From Fistulifera solaris (taxonomy: Eukaryota): a stretch of DNA of 64,000 bases. The notes under the pieces are model-generated. The model saw nothing but the letters and a program-made list of their open reading frames with translations, made no database searches and was not told where the DNA came from. The stretch lies in NCBI GenBank assembly GCA_030295235.1, contig AP026164.1:1798001-1862000 (forward strand), given 5' to 3'. Shown here piece by piece: positions 38,242-59,383 of this stretch. A program made the position numbers and the translations under genes. Within the stretch, counting starts at the first letter, position 1, and each line of letters starts with the position of its first letter.

Positions 38242-38545
38242 ATGGCAACGTTGCTTGTCTACTAGGTCGGGAACGCGATTGAATACCAAAAATAAGCTAG
38301 GGAGCGCCTTTCGGACCTCGATGGGAAGATAGAGGTTTAAAAAGAGTGTCTATGCATTATCCGAGAATCGAGCTCGGAGCTCGACGATGGCAAACGTCGC
38401 TTGTCTACTAAGCTAAACAAACGATTGCATACCAAAATAAGACTAGGGATCCTATCTAGGACCTTGATGGCAAGATAGAAATCGAAAAGAGAAATCATTG
38501 CACCGTCCGAGAATCGAACTCGGAGCTCGACGATGGCAACGTCGA
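38242..38545. repeat. Degenerate ~145-bp tandem repeat (~2 copies)
   Basis: ATGGCAA(A)CGT(T/C)GCTTGTCTACTA...ACCAAAA(A)TAAG at 38242 and 38387; CCGAGAATCGA.CTCGGAGCTCGACGATGGCAA repeated, with a third start at 38533. Confidence 0.8.
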
Positions 38546-39015
38546 ATTTTGCCATTAAACCAACGGTGCAGATGACGCCCAAAGGAGAAATTTGAGTTCT
38601 TGATATGATTGTGATTTTGACGGTGGTTTTGGTGTGTTTGAATTCAACGGCAGCCACGAGAAATGGATGGTTGAAATTGAATAACTCTTAACCTTATAGA
38701 GGTTAAGAAGTGAGAAGTTGTATACACTTTAGACATATATCTTAATAACGGACGGACACAAGCAAAGATACCGTCTATCGGACAGACGGGGATCGCATTG
38801 CGCTTAGCTTATACCAGGTATCTTAGCGCTTCGCGCATTCGCATGAAAACTGGACTTTCACGTTTCGCGGCGTGATGGTTGACACCTCGTTTCTTGGACG
38901 CGTCACCTCGAACCGATGTCAATCGTCGGCCGATCTCCAGAAGCGAAAGAATAATTGCCACCGTTCACAAACCCTCCAAAAAAACACGTTGTAGCAATTA
39001 TTTCAGCACAAGTTC

Positions 39016-44198: not shown

Positions 44199-45320
44199 GT
44201 GTTGCCTATGAAGCTACTGATGAGGTGCATTGCAGCTCGCAAAACACTATTGACAAGGGCAGCGCTGTGAGGTTATACTTTGCGACGAGGTTTGTAGTAA
44301 GGGAAACAATTATTAATGCATTTTACAACTATTTTGTTTTGTCGATAAGTTCCTACTTTCTTATATCAATCGATAGATCGCCACCAGAAATCCATTATCG
44401 ACGTTAAATCTTAGACGAGATCAGCATCCTATTTATTGCCATTGGGAGTTGAAAATGCGTAGGACAAACAAGGACCGATACGCCTGGCCTTCAAAATGGG
44501 ATTGGCGCCGTGCATTCATGCTCCTTCTTGATTCCGTCTTTTCACCTCTTGACGAGATCGCTGTCCCTCTGCATCCATCGATAAACGCTCGACTACTTAT
44601 TTAGAGTTGTTTTGGATAATTTTACCCACCATGGTGAAGTTGGGCACTTCCTAGGGTGTCGACGAGCTTGAACGCGGATCTATTGCGGATCCGCGAACCT
44701 TACCTGGTACCACAGGAATGGTTCTTGAAGAGACGGGCGACTGATTCACGGACCAGGCTACCTGGTACGACTGGTTCATTCGCGAGAGACGAATCACGCA
44801 CCTACGCTACCTGGTAGTTTCGCGTCCGCTCCGCTACCGGTACGGTACCGGTTGGTACCTGGTATTTTTTGACAGCGACACCTCGAGACAATTGTATTGT
44901 ATCTAATCATCGACATTTAAAGAAAACTTTCAGAAGTGTTGCCAGAGGTCAAGCCCTGATAACAATTAGTAGAAGTATCGAAGCACAGCAACTAAAAGTG
45001 GCACGAAAACATCATCATAAAGTTTAGACCTGACTCATTACTGCACGTCCTCCGCTTTTCGTGGACAGCAACTAGGCAGTTCCTTTGTTTCGTCGTGAAA
45101 ACTTCATTGGTCTAACCTTCTCCTTGTGTTTTCGGTAGCGGCTGGAACCGCTTGTCGAAGGTTGAGCATAGATCTTGCTTGGAGGGCAACTACTCATCGT
45201 TTCTTCTTTTTCTTGGAAATTCAAGTGGTGAAGCCAGTTCCAACCAAGATACGCTCATTTCTACCCAATAATACATCGGAATAGTTAGCTAAAACGAGAC
45301 CCATATTGTTTATTGCAAGA

Positions 45321-48300
45321 ATGCGTCAAACAACGGCAGCCATGTTCCTAAGTTCTTTGACGTTTTGCTTGTGTCTTGCGAGTTCTGACTCGTTCGCCTT
45401 CCACCGATCGGCTCAGAAAGCTTCGGCGAGACACGTGAGCTTCACTTCCCCGGAAACAGCGCAATCAACAGCTGTTAATGACGGTCCTTTGCGTAAGAAT
45501 GATTCTGGAAAGACGATCATATTGGCCAGTGAAGAGGAGTTCATCAAACCGGACCGTGATCGGTACAACTATCGCATGATCTTGTTACCCAACAATTTAC
45601 AAGTCTTGCTGGTATCGAACGGAATGAAGGAAGGCGACATTGGAGTCGAGGCAGCATCGGTCCATGTCCAAGCGGGGCACTTTGATGACAGTCTTCCGGG
45701 CCTCGCCCATTTCCATGAACATATGCTTTTTCTTGGTACTAAGCGCTATCCTGATGAGGATGAATATGAACGATTCCTCAACACGCATTCAGGCTTCAGT
45801 AATGCCTACACCGATATGGAAGATACCAACTATTACTTCTCGCTAACAACAGAAGCTGGACCTCCCGATGAGCCTTCAGAAGCGTTGACGGGTGCTCTGG
45901 ACCGATTCGCACAATTCTTTATTGCTCCACTCTTCTCTCCAGACGCTGTTGAAAGAGAACTGAAAGCCATTGATTCGGAATATTCCATGTCAAAAACAAG
46001 CGATTCCTGGAGAAATTTTCAATTGATGAAATCGGCTTGCAATCGTGATCATCGGTTCTCCAAGTTTGGGTGCGGCAATTATGAAACCCTGTCGGAGCGC
46101 GGATCCGATTATCTTTTGTCGGAATTGAAACGATTTTGGGACACTTATTATCAATCCTATAACTTGCGCCTTGCTGTTGCCGGTCATGCATCCTTAGATA
46201 CCTTGCAAAAGACAGTGGAAGATACCTTCGGGAACCTACCGCAATCGGAAGGGTTCCATAGATATGCAAGATCTTTGCCGGAGCAAATATTTTCAAGGGA
46301 GCATGGGAGTGGTGTTGTCGCATTTGGACCTGATCAACTCGGTTTAGTTCGAAAGGTCATTCCGTACGCGGAGACTCGTGTTATCAAATTGTACTTCGCT
46401 ACTCCACCCTTGGATGATCCAGCGGTGAAGAAATCTAGACCAGACCGTGTCTTGGCCCACATTCTCGGTCATGAATCACCTGGATCACTCTATCATTTGT
46501 TGAACGGAGAGGGCTTTATACAGTCTTTGTCAGCGGGGAGTGCTATCGATACTTCTGATTTTTCTCTTTTTGCCGTAACCGTGTCATTAACACCCAAGGG
46601 GATGAAGGAAAAGGAAAAAGTACTTGACTATGTATTTCAATGGATTGCGCTCTTCAAAAGAAGTCAAGAAAAGCTACCGTACTACCACAACGAGTTACGG
46701 CAGATTTCAGAAGTGAATTTCAAATTCAGAGAGAACGGTGATCCAACTGACTTTGTGTCATCAGCCGCAGAACTTCTATTTGATGACTACCTTGAACCAA
46801 AAATGCTCATCAAAGGCAGCTCCGCCGTCTCCGACTACGATCCCGACATTGCAAAAGCATTTTTCGACAGAATTTCTCCTACAAATTGCATGATTACAAT
46901 TACAAGCTCAGATTTTGACGGTTCGCAAGGCGAGTGGGAGACAGAAAAGTGGTACGGGGCGAAGTATCAAACAGAACGCATCGCCGACGCGTCAATTGCT
47001 TTATGGACCAACCCTACAATCGACGAGCGCCTCCATCTACCTGCGATGAATAAATACATTCCCGCAGATTTTTCCCTCAAATGTGACTCTGCCAAGGACA
47101 AGGACGATGTAGACCCTGCAGACACGGAAAGTATTCCTCCGGAACTTATCATCAATAAGCCGTATCTTAGGTTGTGGCACAAGATGGACCGTTTCTGGCG
47201 CGTTCCTAAAACTTACGTTCGATTTGCGTTGAACTCGCCCCATATTTACTCCTCTCCGCGAAGTATGACATTAAACCGCCTGTTTCAGAGAGTACTTAAC
47301 GACGACTTGAACAGCTTCGTGTATGATGCTTCCCTAGCTGGTTGTGGTTACAGAGTGTCTTGCGCCCCAAGAGGGTATCGAATATCTGTCAGTGGTTATT
47401 CAGAGAAGGTACCATTTCTCTTAGAGACTTTGACTAGCCGGATCATAAGTCTAATCGAAGAGATGAAAACCAGCAACGCCGTTCTCGAGCGGCGGTTCAA
47501 GAAAAGCAACAGAAAGCCTTTTGAGGGAAACGAAAAACTATCGTCTCGATACGCCTCATGAGGTTAACAACTACAACTCGCGTCTTTTGATTGAAGAGAG
47601 TGTATGGTATCTAGACGATTATTTGAACGAATTAGAAGGCGAGTGGGGAACGCGCGATCCGCTTACCATGGAGGAATGTGCTAAATCGGCAGAGCAGTGC
47701 TTTACTGGACGTCTACGTTGTGAGGCCTTGTGCATGGGGAATATTGATGAAGATGGTGCAAGAGCAGTCGCCAAAGTGGTGGAAGATCGCTTCCTCAATC
47801 GTGTGCGTCCTATGTCGGAAGCTGAAAATCCCGTCTTTCGCTCCTTTAAGCTGCCAACTAGAGATGAAGCTGTCAAAACTTTCGGCCCCGGAGTCTCGAA
47901 ACGTCACTTCCCGCTTGTTCACCAAAATCTCGCATTCAGCGCGACGGAAGAAAATCATGCCGTCGAGATAATTCTTCAAGTCGGTAGCGAATTTGATTTA
48001 GGATATGAGGGCATGGCAATGTTAGATCTGATGACACATATGTCATATCTTAGTGCCTTTAACCAGCTACGCACGAAGGAGCAGCTTGGGTATTATGTCA
48101 GTTCCTTTGCCCGGAAAACGGCGGGAGGATCCTGGTCGATGGTGGTTTTGGTTCAAAGCGCTGCATATTTACCCGAAAAGCTAGAAGAACGCTGCGAAGC
48201 TTGGTTGGTACAATTTCGAAAGGAACTAGAGGAAATGGACCCCAAAGACATAGTTCAAGAGGCTTCTTCTGTTGCCGCTCAACTATTAGAAGTTGAGACG

Positions 48301-48690
48301 AAACTGTCTCAGGAGGTCAGCCGAGTATGGGGTGAAATCTTGAACACGGAAGGCTTGGCCGATGCTTCGAGAACGCCCGCCTTTGATCGTCTTGAAAAGT
48401 TAGCTGACATACTCACAGTTGACGAGGACGAAGGCGAGTCGTACATGACTGGGGAAGAGTTGAAGCGTCGATTGCTGGATCTTTATGATCGCGCGATTTC
48501 AGCTAGTTCTCCGACCAGAAGAGCTCTTTCAGCTCGCGTATACGGCCACAAGGCTAAAGCCGAATACGACGCGTCTCTCAAACAACCAGGTGTTCTGTCT
48601 ACTTATTCGGACATGAGACACTTGAAGCAGCATCTGTCAACATGGCCTATTATTCCTTACTGGACCCGCAACGAAGTTTCCTCTGATTGA
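45321..48690 (+). CDS. M16A insulinase/pitrilysin-family zinc metallopeptidase, probably plastid-targeted; frameshift near 47505
   Basis: GLAHFHEHMLFLGT (HxxEH), SNAYTDMEDTNYYF, ALDRFAQFF.APLF, HILGHE.PGSL, FNQLRTKEQLGY. Signal peptide ending SDS-FAF. Confidence 0.92.
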
Positions 48691-55942: not shown

Positions 55943-56535
55943 GAGAAGAAAATTAAGAAAGGTAAGGAAAGGTCTGTATTACTATTGCTAAAATAAAATT
56001 ATCCACCTACGCCCAATTTGTTTCTTTGTTCCTCTCGTAGTTGTTCTTTCAATCACTTCTTGGGAACCGAGAACCGAGAGGTTAGGGTTCGGATTCTTGC
56101 GACGCATACAGCTGTTAAGGTTCGAGGTTTTAATAAGGATACCCCAAGGATTAATGATGAATGACTCTAACAGCAAGTGACCCAATTCTAGGGATGGAAA
56201 AAGCAAACTCAAACTCTCTTTGTTATTTTTACAGCTTTACTTGAAGGGAACAGTGATTGCACAAGTTGGAGGACGCACACGAAAGTGACGATCATCAATC
56301 CCAGCTCCAGCCAAATGACTGCTTCTCGACAGTAATCCTTGAAAACTCGAGAAAGGAGTACAATGCTTGTTGGTGCGGCTTGGAGCTTCCAAAATATGAA
56401 AACCAGATCAAAAGCCTCGCAAGTACCCATCATAATTTGATTTTTGGTAAAAAAGGACGTCTGGTGGCAGGATGTCGATCAGAAAGATCTTGCAGTGATC
56501 GATACAGGAATGCCACAAAGGTGAAACATTCGTTA

Positions 56536-57399
56536 TCAATGGATCCAAAAAGAGTGTAGCCAGTCAAATGGAACCTTTTCTCGCACATAATCGTTCAATG
56601 TGCCAAAAAATGACATGACATGTGACAGTGAAACGCTTACGTACTCCTTGTAACAATTGTGCTTTGAATCGCGAAGACGTTCATTCGCATTTAAGAGATC
56701 GTATCTGGTGATGAGTAGCTCAGCTTTCCTTTGCTCGAGTTGAGTCTCTTTTTCGGTAATATGATTTTCAAGCTGTGCCTTTGTCAAAGCTAGATCCCAG
56801 TTGCGCTGTTCCTGCCAGCGAAATTTTCTATTGTATGCGGCCTCAATTTCACGGCGTGATTCTTCCACAAATATTTTGGACGCCTCCTTTTCTTCAATTA
56901 ATTTACGTTCCAGCAAAAGAATTTTTTCATCCAAAGCATCCTTTGCTTGCCCGACATGGGAAACTTCAGTCTGCGCATTCTTCATCTCTTCCCGCAACGC
57001 CTCCATCTCGGTCTGTGATTCAAGCCACTTCGCGTGAGTAGCCTCAAGAAGTGCCTGAGTTTCAGAATATAAACGTTGTACGCGGATTAGCTCACTTGCT
57101 GTCTTTAGATTTTCGGTGCATATGGTTTCATCTTCGCTGTTAACCGGAGCCTGTTCGAGGATAGTGGTCTCCAATGATGCTACCAATGACTGGCAATCGG
57201 AGAGCTCGTCCTTTATTTTTTGGTGGAAATCATGCATTGTGTCATTCTTATCCGCGGAAAGCTCATCCGTTTCCGTGCGTTGTGGTCTATCCTTGAAGTA
57301 GCTTTCGTAAGGAGGCATGAACGCCCGTGCTAATGAGGAGAAAAGAAGGAGCAAGACTATTGATGCGGTTTGATGCCGGGAAATAAAAGAAGCAGTCAT
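56536..57399 (-). CDS. Hypothetical coiled-coil protein with signal peptide
   Basis: Intact 287-aa ORF; hydrophobic N-terminus ending LARA-F; heptad-rich body. Confidence 0.65.
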   Translation of the reverse strand: MTASFISRHQTASIVLLLLFSSLARAFMPPYESYFKDRPQRTETDELSADKNDTMHDFHQKIKDELSDCQSLVASLETTILEQAPVNSEDETICTENLKTASELIRVQRLYSETQALLEATHAKWLESQTEMEALREEMKNAQTEVSHVGQAKDALDEKILLLERKLIEEKEASKIFVEESRREIEAAYNRKFRWQEQRNWDLALTKAQLENHITEKETQLEQRKAELLITRYDLLNANERLRDSKHNCYKEYVSVSLSHVMSFFGTLNDYVREKVPFDWLHSFWIH

Positions 57400-57587
57400 G
57401 ATTTGTTACGCGTCGAAGAACCGGTACGAACAAATCACAGAATGATTAGTTGATTGTGGTACGTCTCTCTGGGTGAAGAGCAATACGTATAATGCTTTAG
57501 ATTAAATTACCAGGTATGATTGTCAAAAGTCGACTTCATCGTTAGCTTCCCATTAGAAAACAGAAAAGAGAAAAAAGCGAAGAGATT

Positions 57588-57981
57588 TGTTAAAATACTA
57601 ACGTACTGTGGAATCGAACCACAGAGCCATCCCAATCACGTCGTATTTCTACCCCGATCCATGATATATAAGCCACTCTGACTGACGTACAGACCCTCAA
57701 TCTGACATCCTCCCTGGCCTTATACTATCATGATCCGTACTGTTTATGCCCTTCAGCCTCCTCACTTGAGACCGCTTCCAGCCCTGCTCTTTTATCCTCC
57801 CGGCTTCTCAGGAGTCGGCAACAAACGCACCACGCGCGGGTTCGAACCCTGCACGTTACCATGTTAAAATACTAACGTACTGTGGAATCGAACCACAGAG
57901 CCATCCCAATCACGTCGTATTTCTACCCCGATCCATGATATATAAGCCACTCTGACTGACGTACAGACCCTCAATCTGACA
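57588..57981 (-). mobile_element. TRIM-type miniature LTR retrotransposon (394 bp): LTRs 57588-57707 and 57862-57981, TSD GAGATT
   Basis: Two identical 120-bp TG..CA direct repeats. 154-bp non-coding interior with a PBS (TGGTAACGTG on - strand) and a PPT (AGGGAGGA on - strand) abutting the LTRs. GAGATT at 57582-57587 and 57982-57987. Confidence 0.95.
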
Positions 57982-58239
57982 GAGATTCACCACGTCCACG
58001 TGGTAAGGTTAAGGCTATCAACTATCAATGTGCTTTCACCGTTCACTGTTCTCGGTTCATGGATGAAATCTATTTTTTAGAAAACCTGGTCGCATACGCA
58101 AAGCTCGAAAGACTTCACCCTTATTAAGGGTTTTGTCGAGGGACATTTGATATGAAGAGGGATCCACGTTCCAATAGAACGATACCCTAATGAGTGACTA
58201 AGAGCATAGTCACGCAAAAATTCGTCTATAGGTGAACAG

Positions 58240-59383
58240 CTATAAAACAATTTGGGTCCAGCAGTTGGAGCGGCCAATTCGCTTGTAGACAAGTGTTTTA
58301 TCACATCGATCGCCAAATATTTTGCAGTATGGAACGTCGCGTATCAGCTTAAGAGTTGCGCGAAGAGAATCGCAAAAGCTGTCTTCTTCGCAATCCGGTG
58401 ATGTACTCGTATACTGTAGCAGAAGGTCGTCGGGCATCTTCAAAAATGACTCCATTCCTCGAAATGGACTGTAGGCGAAGGGTTCGATGATGGTGTAGCA
58501 CGACTTTTCGCAATGAATTTGATTTAAACGAGGAGCAGCGGTGTTTCGTGTAAACAACCGCGCCGATCGAAGCACAGGCAGAGGGCCCGAAACGTCTTCG
58601 TCGCATCGAGCCAAGAAGGCATCACCCGATACTAGGTCAATAGCAAGTCCCCTACCTACTGGTGAGCCATTCCCCGAGTCGTTTAAACAGGAAATGGAGC
58701 AGGTTTTGAAGGCGAGACAGAGACTCTCTCGTTCCTCGTCCGCGATATCAGCCAGTAAGTGAATCATCCAGTTCGAGATGTTCTGAGAAGTCCCGTCTAT
58801 GTCATTAAAGCCACCCATTACGTGAACGGATATTGCAACCTTCTTCTCTCCCCCTCCAGTGGTGGTTGCGATGACGGACGACCATAGAGCGAATGCATTT
58901 CTCGTAGCTCGTTGAGTCAATGTGACTAAGACTTACAAGAGGGGCATTGTCGTCGGAGCAACTGCGCAGTGCTAGAATATGACATGTTGTTGCCTTGTCA
59001 CTCATAATGACATCGCATTGAGCAGGAACGGCGTGTGCTACTTCACCTTGTCCTACGTATAGAATGCGTTCCCTGGAGAAGCGCGAAAAATGGGCAGGGT
59101 CTACAGAGAGGAATGCATCGCGTGCATCCAGAATTTGCGGCAGACATTGCAGACATTCATCTACATCTAAGCTTGAGCCTGATTTTGGCAAGTAAATTGG
59201 CACGTCTTGACCCTCAGAGGTATCATCTATGCATTCAGAATCTCCGGAAACACGAAGGTTGGTTTGTCGCAAACTTACTTCCTCGGATCGGTTGGCTTGG
59301 AGCGCTTCTAAGGACGACACGCGCTTTAAAGCACTTTCGAGGCTTACGAGCGTTCCTGTTGAATCCGAATTGGCAATAACCAT
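58240..59383 (-). CDS. NTAN1: Protein N-terminal asparagine amidohydrolase; frameshift near 58850
   Basis: LYVGQGEVA, SDKATTCHILALR, SLSHID, VHVMGGFND, GPLPVLRSAR, LLQYTSTSPDCE. Confidence 0.85.

Follow-up and report, generated by a model that had tools for sequence, protein, structure and literature searches.

A probable TRIM copy of 394 bp in the nuclear genome of a raphid pennate diatom

The sequence lying between positions 57588 and 57981 of the window (the whole 64-kb stretch of DNA analysed here) is probably a TRIM copy, i.e. a non-autonomous LTR retrotransposon of 394 bp; its host is a raphid pennate diatom, in whose nuclear genome it resides. It consists of two direct repeats of 120 nt each (57588–57707 and 57862–57981, start-to-start distance 274) and a spacer of 154 nt (57708–57861). 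The two LTRs are 100% identical, an identity that depends on the assembly and for which the confirmation by contigs running into the flank covers the last 56 nt of the right LTR only. On either side the LTRs are flush with the hexanucleotide GAGATT (57582–57587 and 57982–57987). This TSD is exactly 6 bp in length, since the flush 5-mers (AGATT and GAGAT) and 7-mers (AGAGATT and GAGATTC) disagree. The LTR termini are TGT..ACA and therefore of the TG..CA type. All of these features had been listed in the original prediction, and they were confirmed base for base. The anatomical combination is beyond chance.

The minus strand is the sense strand, because a TGG start and a purine tract occur on this strand only. 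Read in this direction, the 5’ LTR occupies 57862–57981 and carries the motif TATATAT at its positions 38–44 (57938–57944). The internal region opens immediately 3’ of it with TGGTAACGTGCAGGG, which has the TGG start; the PBS-like segment (TGGTAACGTGCAGGGTTCGAACCCGCGCG) extends over 57833–57861. At its other end the internal region closes with AAGGCCAGGGAGGA (57708–57721), a polypurine-tract-like end read directly from the letters, which stands immediately before the 3’ LTR (57588–57707). The purine run AGGGAGGA is flush with this LTR; it is a short tract, the terminal 8 nt being all purine and 12 of the 14 nt purine. The plus strand was rejected as the sense strand, the left LTR having no TGG after it and the right LTR no purine tract before it. 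The longest stop-to-stop frame of the element is 67 aa, and it has no coding capacity; on this, and on the TGG start and purine tract of the minus strand, the prediction was correct. A 44-aa frame within the LTR found no relatives in a protein search. The G+C content of the element is 48.7% compared with 45.9% for the window. It constitutes the sole perfect long direct repeat of the 64-kb sequence, in which two repeat families of ≥ 35 nt were found, and no further copy of the LTR or the internal region is present elsewhere in the window. The other repeat family is a 75%-identical pair located beside a tRNA-Gly gene.

According to the survey by Gao et al. (2016, PMC4717578), TRIMs possess terminal direct repeats, a PBS and PPT and a TSD of 4–6 bp, are smaller than 1000 bp (down to 292 bp) and specify no proteins. 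The diatom element has LTRs with TG..CA ends, a length of 394 bp, no proteins, a 6-bp TSD and a PPT, and it belongs to a dispersed family of the same short form. The prediction had described 5 bp as the usual TSD of such elements; a 6-bp duplication falls inside the range quoted in that survey.

How such a copy might have been made can be outlined as follows. Transcription of the family would be driven by the 5’ LTR, which presumably contains the promoter, and a putative autonomous LTR element would supply in trans the Gag-Pol that packages and reverse-transcribes the RNA. A presumed primer may start minus-strand DNA at the site beginning with TGG next to the 5’ LTR, and plus-strand DNA may start from the AGGGAGGA run adjoining the 3’ LTR, which would regenerate two identical LTRs. 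The integrase of the partner would then cut the target with a stagger of 6 bp and attach the TG..CA ends to it, leaving GAGATT on both sides. We infer the mobilisation in trans, the partner and any current activity. The stagger is known from this one insertion, and as a trait of the family it is a proposal resting on a single copy.

The family was followed in public sequencing runs by means of Logan contigs, whose depth values are k-mer figures for the contig as a whole and do not give copy numbers. Run X1 is DNA-like and bears the same organism label; it is possibly the sample from which the window itself was assembled and so is not independent. X5 is a wetland metagenome, and X2 and X3 are cDNA-like. 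The contigs leave holes in their cover of the region (57382–57569 and 57899–58180 in X2 and X3, 57523–57569 in X5), which were not used as evidence. In X1 there are 24 contigs which match the window, 16 of them fitting both LTRs, and the depth is 374–578 over the left LTR and 94–121 over the internal region as against 16–38 in the flanks. The metagenome yielded 32 matching contigs (25 fitting both LTRs) with depths of 339–1093, 114–137 and 0–19, respectively. Internal-region contigs in both runs cross the LTR-internal junctions. Four X5 contigs depart from the alignment exactly at the LTR edge (57587/57588), next to the left GAGATT, and continue into unlike sequence; one X1 contig likewise leaves at 57586. 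Beyond the edge the consensus agreement of the X5 contigs is just 0.57, and therefore the flanks differ. In X1 the two flank-LTR junctions of the window copy are bridged with 0 differences by records 2 and 7, the latter covering 57926 onwards and extending into the right flank. Two studies support the boundary of the LTR as well as the multi-copy and dispersed nature of the family.

Members of the family are not uniform. Their contigs show 3–12 letters different from the window copy, and the internal region exists in X1 in at least two variants (record 5 with 4 differences and record 6 with 10). The ratio of LTR to internal depth is roughly 4–5:1, in excess of 2:1, and suggests in a rough way either solo LTRs or LTRs common to another element; solo and tandem forms are frequent among TRIMs according to PMC4717578. 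Exact searches of sequence collections with short pieces were negative: a 24-nt LTR piece (57608–57631) had no match among metagenome contigs, a search which relatives with the other base at the polymorphic position 57630 would escape, and there was none for a 25-nt LTR end (one IUPAC position) in genome and viral contig collections or for the 17-nt LTR-end/PBS junction in viral contigs. In sum, this is a dispersed family of low copy number, and probably an expressed one.

The insertion is polymorphic. X1 record 1 (depth 17.8, approximately 88% identical to the window) and X5 record 15 both join 57494 to 58144 with about 274 letters replacing 649, where removal of the element and one GAGATT would leave 249. 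Similarly, X5 record 16 has 486 letters in place of the 900 of the window, the empty expectation being 500. In these contigs the DNA between the anchors is too diverged to align, and emptiness was judged by length. The window-like contigs of X1 have depths of 20.6 and 16, about equal to that of record 1. The locus therefore exists in two haplotype-like versions, diverged by some 12%, of which one carries the insertion; three homologous contigs, all roughly 88% identical to the window, lack it and are too short to contain it. The prediction had proposed looking for an empty site; contigs of empty length do occur in X1 and X5. A search for the orthologous empty locus with the neighbouring amidohydrolase exon retrieved only a 41%-identical relative (L001).

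The same prediction called the insertion very young. There are 0 differences in 120 positions between the LTRs, and this sets the bound on their divergence at <2.5% (95%). The mutation rate of diatoms is approximately 5e-10 per site per generation, at which the bound permits an age of up to some 10^7 generations. Both LTRs carry a C at 57682/57956 and an A at 57689/57963, states missing from every other matched contig and confirmed for the right LTR by X1 record 7; two private states common to both LTRs fit the copying of both from one template. The window copy stands apart from all other matched contigs at 57682, 57689, 57746, 57787, 57831 and 57832 and by an indel at 57735, and therefore derives from a minor source lineage about 2.5% off the abundant variants. 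The description “young” is compatible with the data; for “very young” there is the identity of the LTRs on one side, and on the other a bound of only 2.5% and a copy distinct from every other matched contig.

Runs X2 and X3 each contain one contig of 304 nt which runs from the internal region through an LTR and back into the internal region (the alignment “goes back 275”); a single 1-nt indel occurs in it. In both runs the loop formed by the assembly graph comprises one LTR and one internal region and has a period of approximately 274, and the short form is therefore the repeated unit. A closed 304-nt contig is no proof of a circle, since tandem arrays, or an LTR-to-LTR transcript with an R of at least 30 nt, would also close the graph. 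The RNA status of these runs rests on the guess of a tool and on one poly-T end: X2 is regarded as cDNA-like because its contig of the neighbouring amidohydrolase-like gene has a loose end of 25 T residues at 58207, the 3’ end of that gene. The depth of the element contig is 61.8 in X2 compared with 91–106 for the amidohydrolase-like gene, and 33.9 in X3 compared with 102.5, i.e. 0.3–0.6 of the depth of that gene across the two runs. The contigs carry no information on the strand, start or end of any RNA. The sequence expressed in X2 and X3 is that of the dominant X5 variant and is 3 letters off the window copy in the LTR and 11 letters and a gap off in the internal part. It is likely that the TRIM family is transcribed; the sequence expressed in these two runs is not that of the window copy.

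The PBS-like segment deserves closer description. Taken as their reverse complement, the 29 nt following the 5’ LTR read as a T-arm-like hairpin (GCGGG-TTCGAAC-CCTGC) succeeded by ACGTTAC and CA, that is as a tRNA-like T-arm and acceptor 3’ strand. By comparison with a canonical tRNA (T-loop TTCGAAC, 7-nt acceptor strand, discriminator and CCA) the segment is 2 nt short. This register, together with a purine tract of only 8 nt, counts against the reading of the element as a TRIM. The sole Rfam match to the segment is the 3’ part of tRNA-Sec and is non-significant (10 bits, E 7.1). Gly-GCC, the only tRNA within the window, does not fit it, and an exact scan of prokaryote genome and viral contigs with the 21-nt PBS/T-arm piece gave no match.

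A second tRNA-like piece resides in the LTR itself. In the sense direction this contains CTGTGGTTCGATTCCACAG, a box-B-like T-arm, followed by TACGTTAG and TTTT. In the 5’ LTR the T-arm-like hairpin is at 57880–57898, where 15 nt match a T-arm of the tmRNA/tRNA clan at 6.3 bits (E 0.93); in the second LTR the same motif is at 57606–57624 with TTTT 10 nt downstream. The end of U5 resembles the reverse-complemented PBS, the local-alignment score being reached by 0.3% of 2000 shuffles, and the two are predicted to form a hairpin (57839–57894) of -28.9 kcal/mol (z -3.85; equalled in stability by 1 of 200 shuffles) with the LTR/internal junction in its loop. The paired U5/PBS stretches have 0 variants among the 40 variant rows listed (73 further rows exist).

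These observations bear on what we consider the foremost alternative, although an improbable one: that the element is a TRIM of the TRIMp3/Helenus type, whose LTR module would be derived from the very tRNA that has its 3’ end complemented by the PBS, making U5 a mimic of the primer that pairs with the PBS. Helenus elements, as presented by Kojima (2024, PMC10886601), have tRNA-derived LTRs, a length of 311–1263 bp and a TSD of 4 or 5 bp, and are reported only from fungi, animals and Selaginella; nowhere does the paper use the words stramenopile, diatom or protist. Like them, the diatom element is a miniature LTR element of similar size with a PPT and, putatively, a PBS, its 394 bp falling inside their range, and one Helenus is given there with LTRs of 120 bp. 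The GGTTC box B of Helenus LTRs has its counterpart in the box-B consensus GGTTCGATTC at sense positions 88–97 of the LTR, which is enclosed in a hairpin with a 6-bp stem and followed by an acceptor-like ACGTTA strand and TTTT. The likeness of U5 to the reverse-complemented PBS and the stability of the hairpin which they would form point in the same direction. Furthermore, a closed RNA contig calls for an R of at least 30 nt or for read-through, and a pol III unit spanning most of the LTR would supply this. Under such a scheme the element would be a stramenopile TRIM of the pol III type, with U5 either keeping the PBS paired in a hairpin of 21 bp up to the moment of priming or acting as a built-in primer like that of the self-priming Tf1-type, and with a diatom integrase making the 6-bp cut; to this elaboration we accord the same small likelihood.

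Several observations speak against it. No box A (TRGCY..YGG) is found in the LTR at tRNA-like spacing: the sole match (79–89) overlaps box B, and the TRGCY at LTR position 33 has its YGG 9 nt away. The box-B motif occurs by chance 8 more times in the window. ARAGORN (tRNAscan-SE being the tool employed by Kojima) recognised no tRNA in the element at its default or -ps thresholds; it made a call only at -ps80, where a shuffled 64-kb sequence yields about 30. No Rfam tRNA was obtained across the element at E values of up to 10, and since no Rfam family was significant, a true tRNA within the element was rejected. The T-run in U5 would halt pol III ahead of the PBS. Some variants of the family carry indels in the outer 15 nt of U5, the acceptor-like end (loose ends at 57603, 57605 and 57873). 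Lastly, Kojima (PMC10886601) saw no complementarity between the tRNA-like parts of Helenus LTRs and the PBS, whereas U5 and the PBS are predicted to pair here. The element has not been filed as Helenus because it has no spaced box A, no tRNA at normal thresholds and no Rfam tRNA.

Returning to a propagating TRIM family as the preferred reading, we regard it as very unlikely that the element instead arose once, when one copy of an autonomous LTR retrotransposon suffered an internal deletion, with no miniature family behind it. TRIMs are thought to arise from such deletions, as stated in PMC4717578. The same short period and sequence variants recur in independent data sets, however, and this disfavours the explanation: the 154-nt internal region is several-fold above flank depth in X1 and X5 and has at least two variants, and LTR-to-LTR linkage with the same period was found in both X2 and X3. 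Nor does any listed contig piece extend the internal part into longer unlike sequence, the exception being a 57-letter loose end at 57809 in X5. The original prediction had named a single-copy sequence lacking an empty allele and a related autonomous element, and a simple internal deletion, as the findings that would speak against it; what was found is a multi-copy family in which the short form is itself repeated, along with contigs of empty length. Least credible of all is a local tandem duplication or assembly artefact imitating the LTR-internal-LTR arrangement: short-read graphs do collapse LTRs, and tandem arrays would likewise produce closed 304-nt contigs, but such an event would hardly be accompanied by TG..CA ends, an exact 6-bp flank duplication and a TGG start and purine tract on one strand, by LTR copies with unrelated flanks in two data sets, and by flank-LTR junctions both bridged at 0 differences in X1.

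Plant retrozymes (PMC5680766) are also small non-autonomous LTR elements, and their RNAs have circular or self-closing assemblies. They differ in carrying a hammerhead ribozyme in their LTRs; this identity was rejected, there being no hammerhead among the Rfam matches over 57400–58200 at E values of up to 10.

Close structural parallels are the TRIMs of plants, with Katydid, SMART and Wukong as well as 156 families (Gao et al. 2016, PMC4717578). They share with the diatom element terminal repeats of approximately 100–250 bp, a short non-coding interior with a PPT (and a PBS, putative in the diatom element), and a location near genes, where TRIMs are reported in the same survey to be enriched. 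The insertions quoted there have a 5-bp TSD in contrast to 6 bp here, and the present host is a diatom (a stramenopile). The PBS-like segment of the diatom element is off the usual tRNA 3’-end register, and the likeness is judged by structure and not by sequence.

The prediction had also known of no described diatom TRIM. No described anatomy of one was found in the literature searched, the scope of which excluded Repbase and subscription journals. The category itself is not new to diatoms: Table 2 of Rastogi et al. (2018, PMC5859163) has 27 “Putative TRIM/LARD” totalling 7,291 bp in Phaeodactylum tricornutum, derived by automated annotation. These are likewise non-autonomous, LTR-type and from a pennate diatom, the comparison being one of class label alone. 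A mention of TRIMs exists for the brown alga Ectocarpus (10.1101/307165). Among autonomous diatom elements the Copia-like CoDi, e.g. Blackbeard (Maumus et al. 2009, PMC2806351), are active and transcribed and have empty-allele polymorphism. They are kilobases in length, and Blackbeard has a TSD of 4 bp (TTCC) compared with 6 bp here. CoDi elements are candidate suppliers of Gag-Pol to the family.

Work on diatom transposons has centred on the autonomous Copia-like (CoDi) elements, and miniature LTR elements have so far been represented by an automated “putative TRIM/LARD” class. The element described here provides a structurally complete reference for the annotation of diatom genomes, in which such repeats are easily overlooked or taken for tRNA-like sequence. 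It extends a known kind of element to a group for which there is barely any description and leaves the working of TRIMs unchanged. It also serves as a marker of recent retrotransposition, with the 6-bp TSD and the putative PBS furnishing a handle on the active partner element.

Minus-strand genes flank the element on both sides. It is situated 188 nt upstream of an ATG at 57399, in accordance with the distance of about 190 bp originally given. This start codon is considered real because the N-terminus of a homologue (P0121) aligns from the same methionine. The downstream ORF (56536–57399) has four relatives in the protein collection with 44–78% identity, and a tblastn match extends the gene to 56212 across an in-frame interruption; the product of the whole (56212–57399, minus strand) is a lineage-restricted coiled-coil-like protein. 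An LTR that precedes a conserved gene by 188 bp and shares its orientation makes effects on the promoter open to testing. Read-through from the LTR into this gene was not observed in the contigs, a negative that is given no weight as evidence. The upstream neighbour is the N-terminal asparagine amidohydrolase-like gene, the poly-T end of which (58207) is 226 nt from the element. The window is eukaryotic in content; elsewhere it encodes a protein kinase, a DnaJ/TPR protein, a DEAD helicase, an M16 insulinase and an SPX domain. Of the 120 insulinase relatives listed, those with a name come with few exceptions from diatoms; the raphid pennates Mayamaea, Fragilaria and Nitzschia rank highest among these at approximately 55–58% identity.

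A second version of the element locus is present in X1, a DNA-like run that bears the same organism label and is possibly the assembly's own sample. It is approximately 88% identical to the window over 57100-57494 (49 differences in 395 letters) and 58144-58497 (43 differences in 354). Its k-mer depth in X1 (17.8) is about equal to that of the window's own version (16-20.6). The ~88% version is also found in the wetland metagenome X5, where the window's own flanks are without cover. These observations point to haplotypes that have diverged strongly, to hybridity of the genome or to a paralogous copy of the segment.

Within the TRIM itself, the outer end of the LTR (57588-57605, equivalent to 57862-57879) carries short tandem duplications of a TACTAACGTAC-like motif in other copies of the family. 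Copies with such duplications were seen as loose contig ends, at 57603 and 57605 in X1 and at 57873 in X5. The outer end of U5 is a hot spot for indels within the TRIM family.

Upstream of the element lies a gene resembling N-terminal asparagine amidohydrolase (58207-59383, minus strand). Since it is divided between two overlapping ORFs (58240-58920 and 58805-59383), it probably contains an intron or changes frame. The poly(A) site of this gene is marked at 58207, where a cDNA-like contig from run X2 terminates in a run of 25 T. The downstream coiled-coil-like gene (56212-57399, minus strand) is represented by a 287-amino acid ORF which ends about 100 residues short at the C-terminus in comparison with its four homologues. 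In tblastn the homologue match continues past the ORF in the same frame to 56212, and there is therefore a short in-frame interruption near 56536, either a small intron or a stop.

Elsewhere in the window an M16 insulinase-like gene (45306-48690) is split between two ORFs of 751 and 389 amino acids, whereas its relatives are single proteins of approximately 1100-1200 amino acids; the nearest one in the protein collection, from a metagenome contig, is 95% identical. Lastly, two 118-nt tandem repeats at 38276-38393 and 38422-38539 share 75% identity at a spacing of 146. The pair overlaps a tRNA-Gly(GCC) gene (38498-38570, minus strand), and ARAGORN at a relaxed threshold also called a degenerate tRNA-like sequence at 38354-38423. 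The region 38276-38570 looks like a tRNA-Gly gene with an adjoining decayed duplicate.
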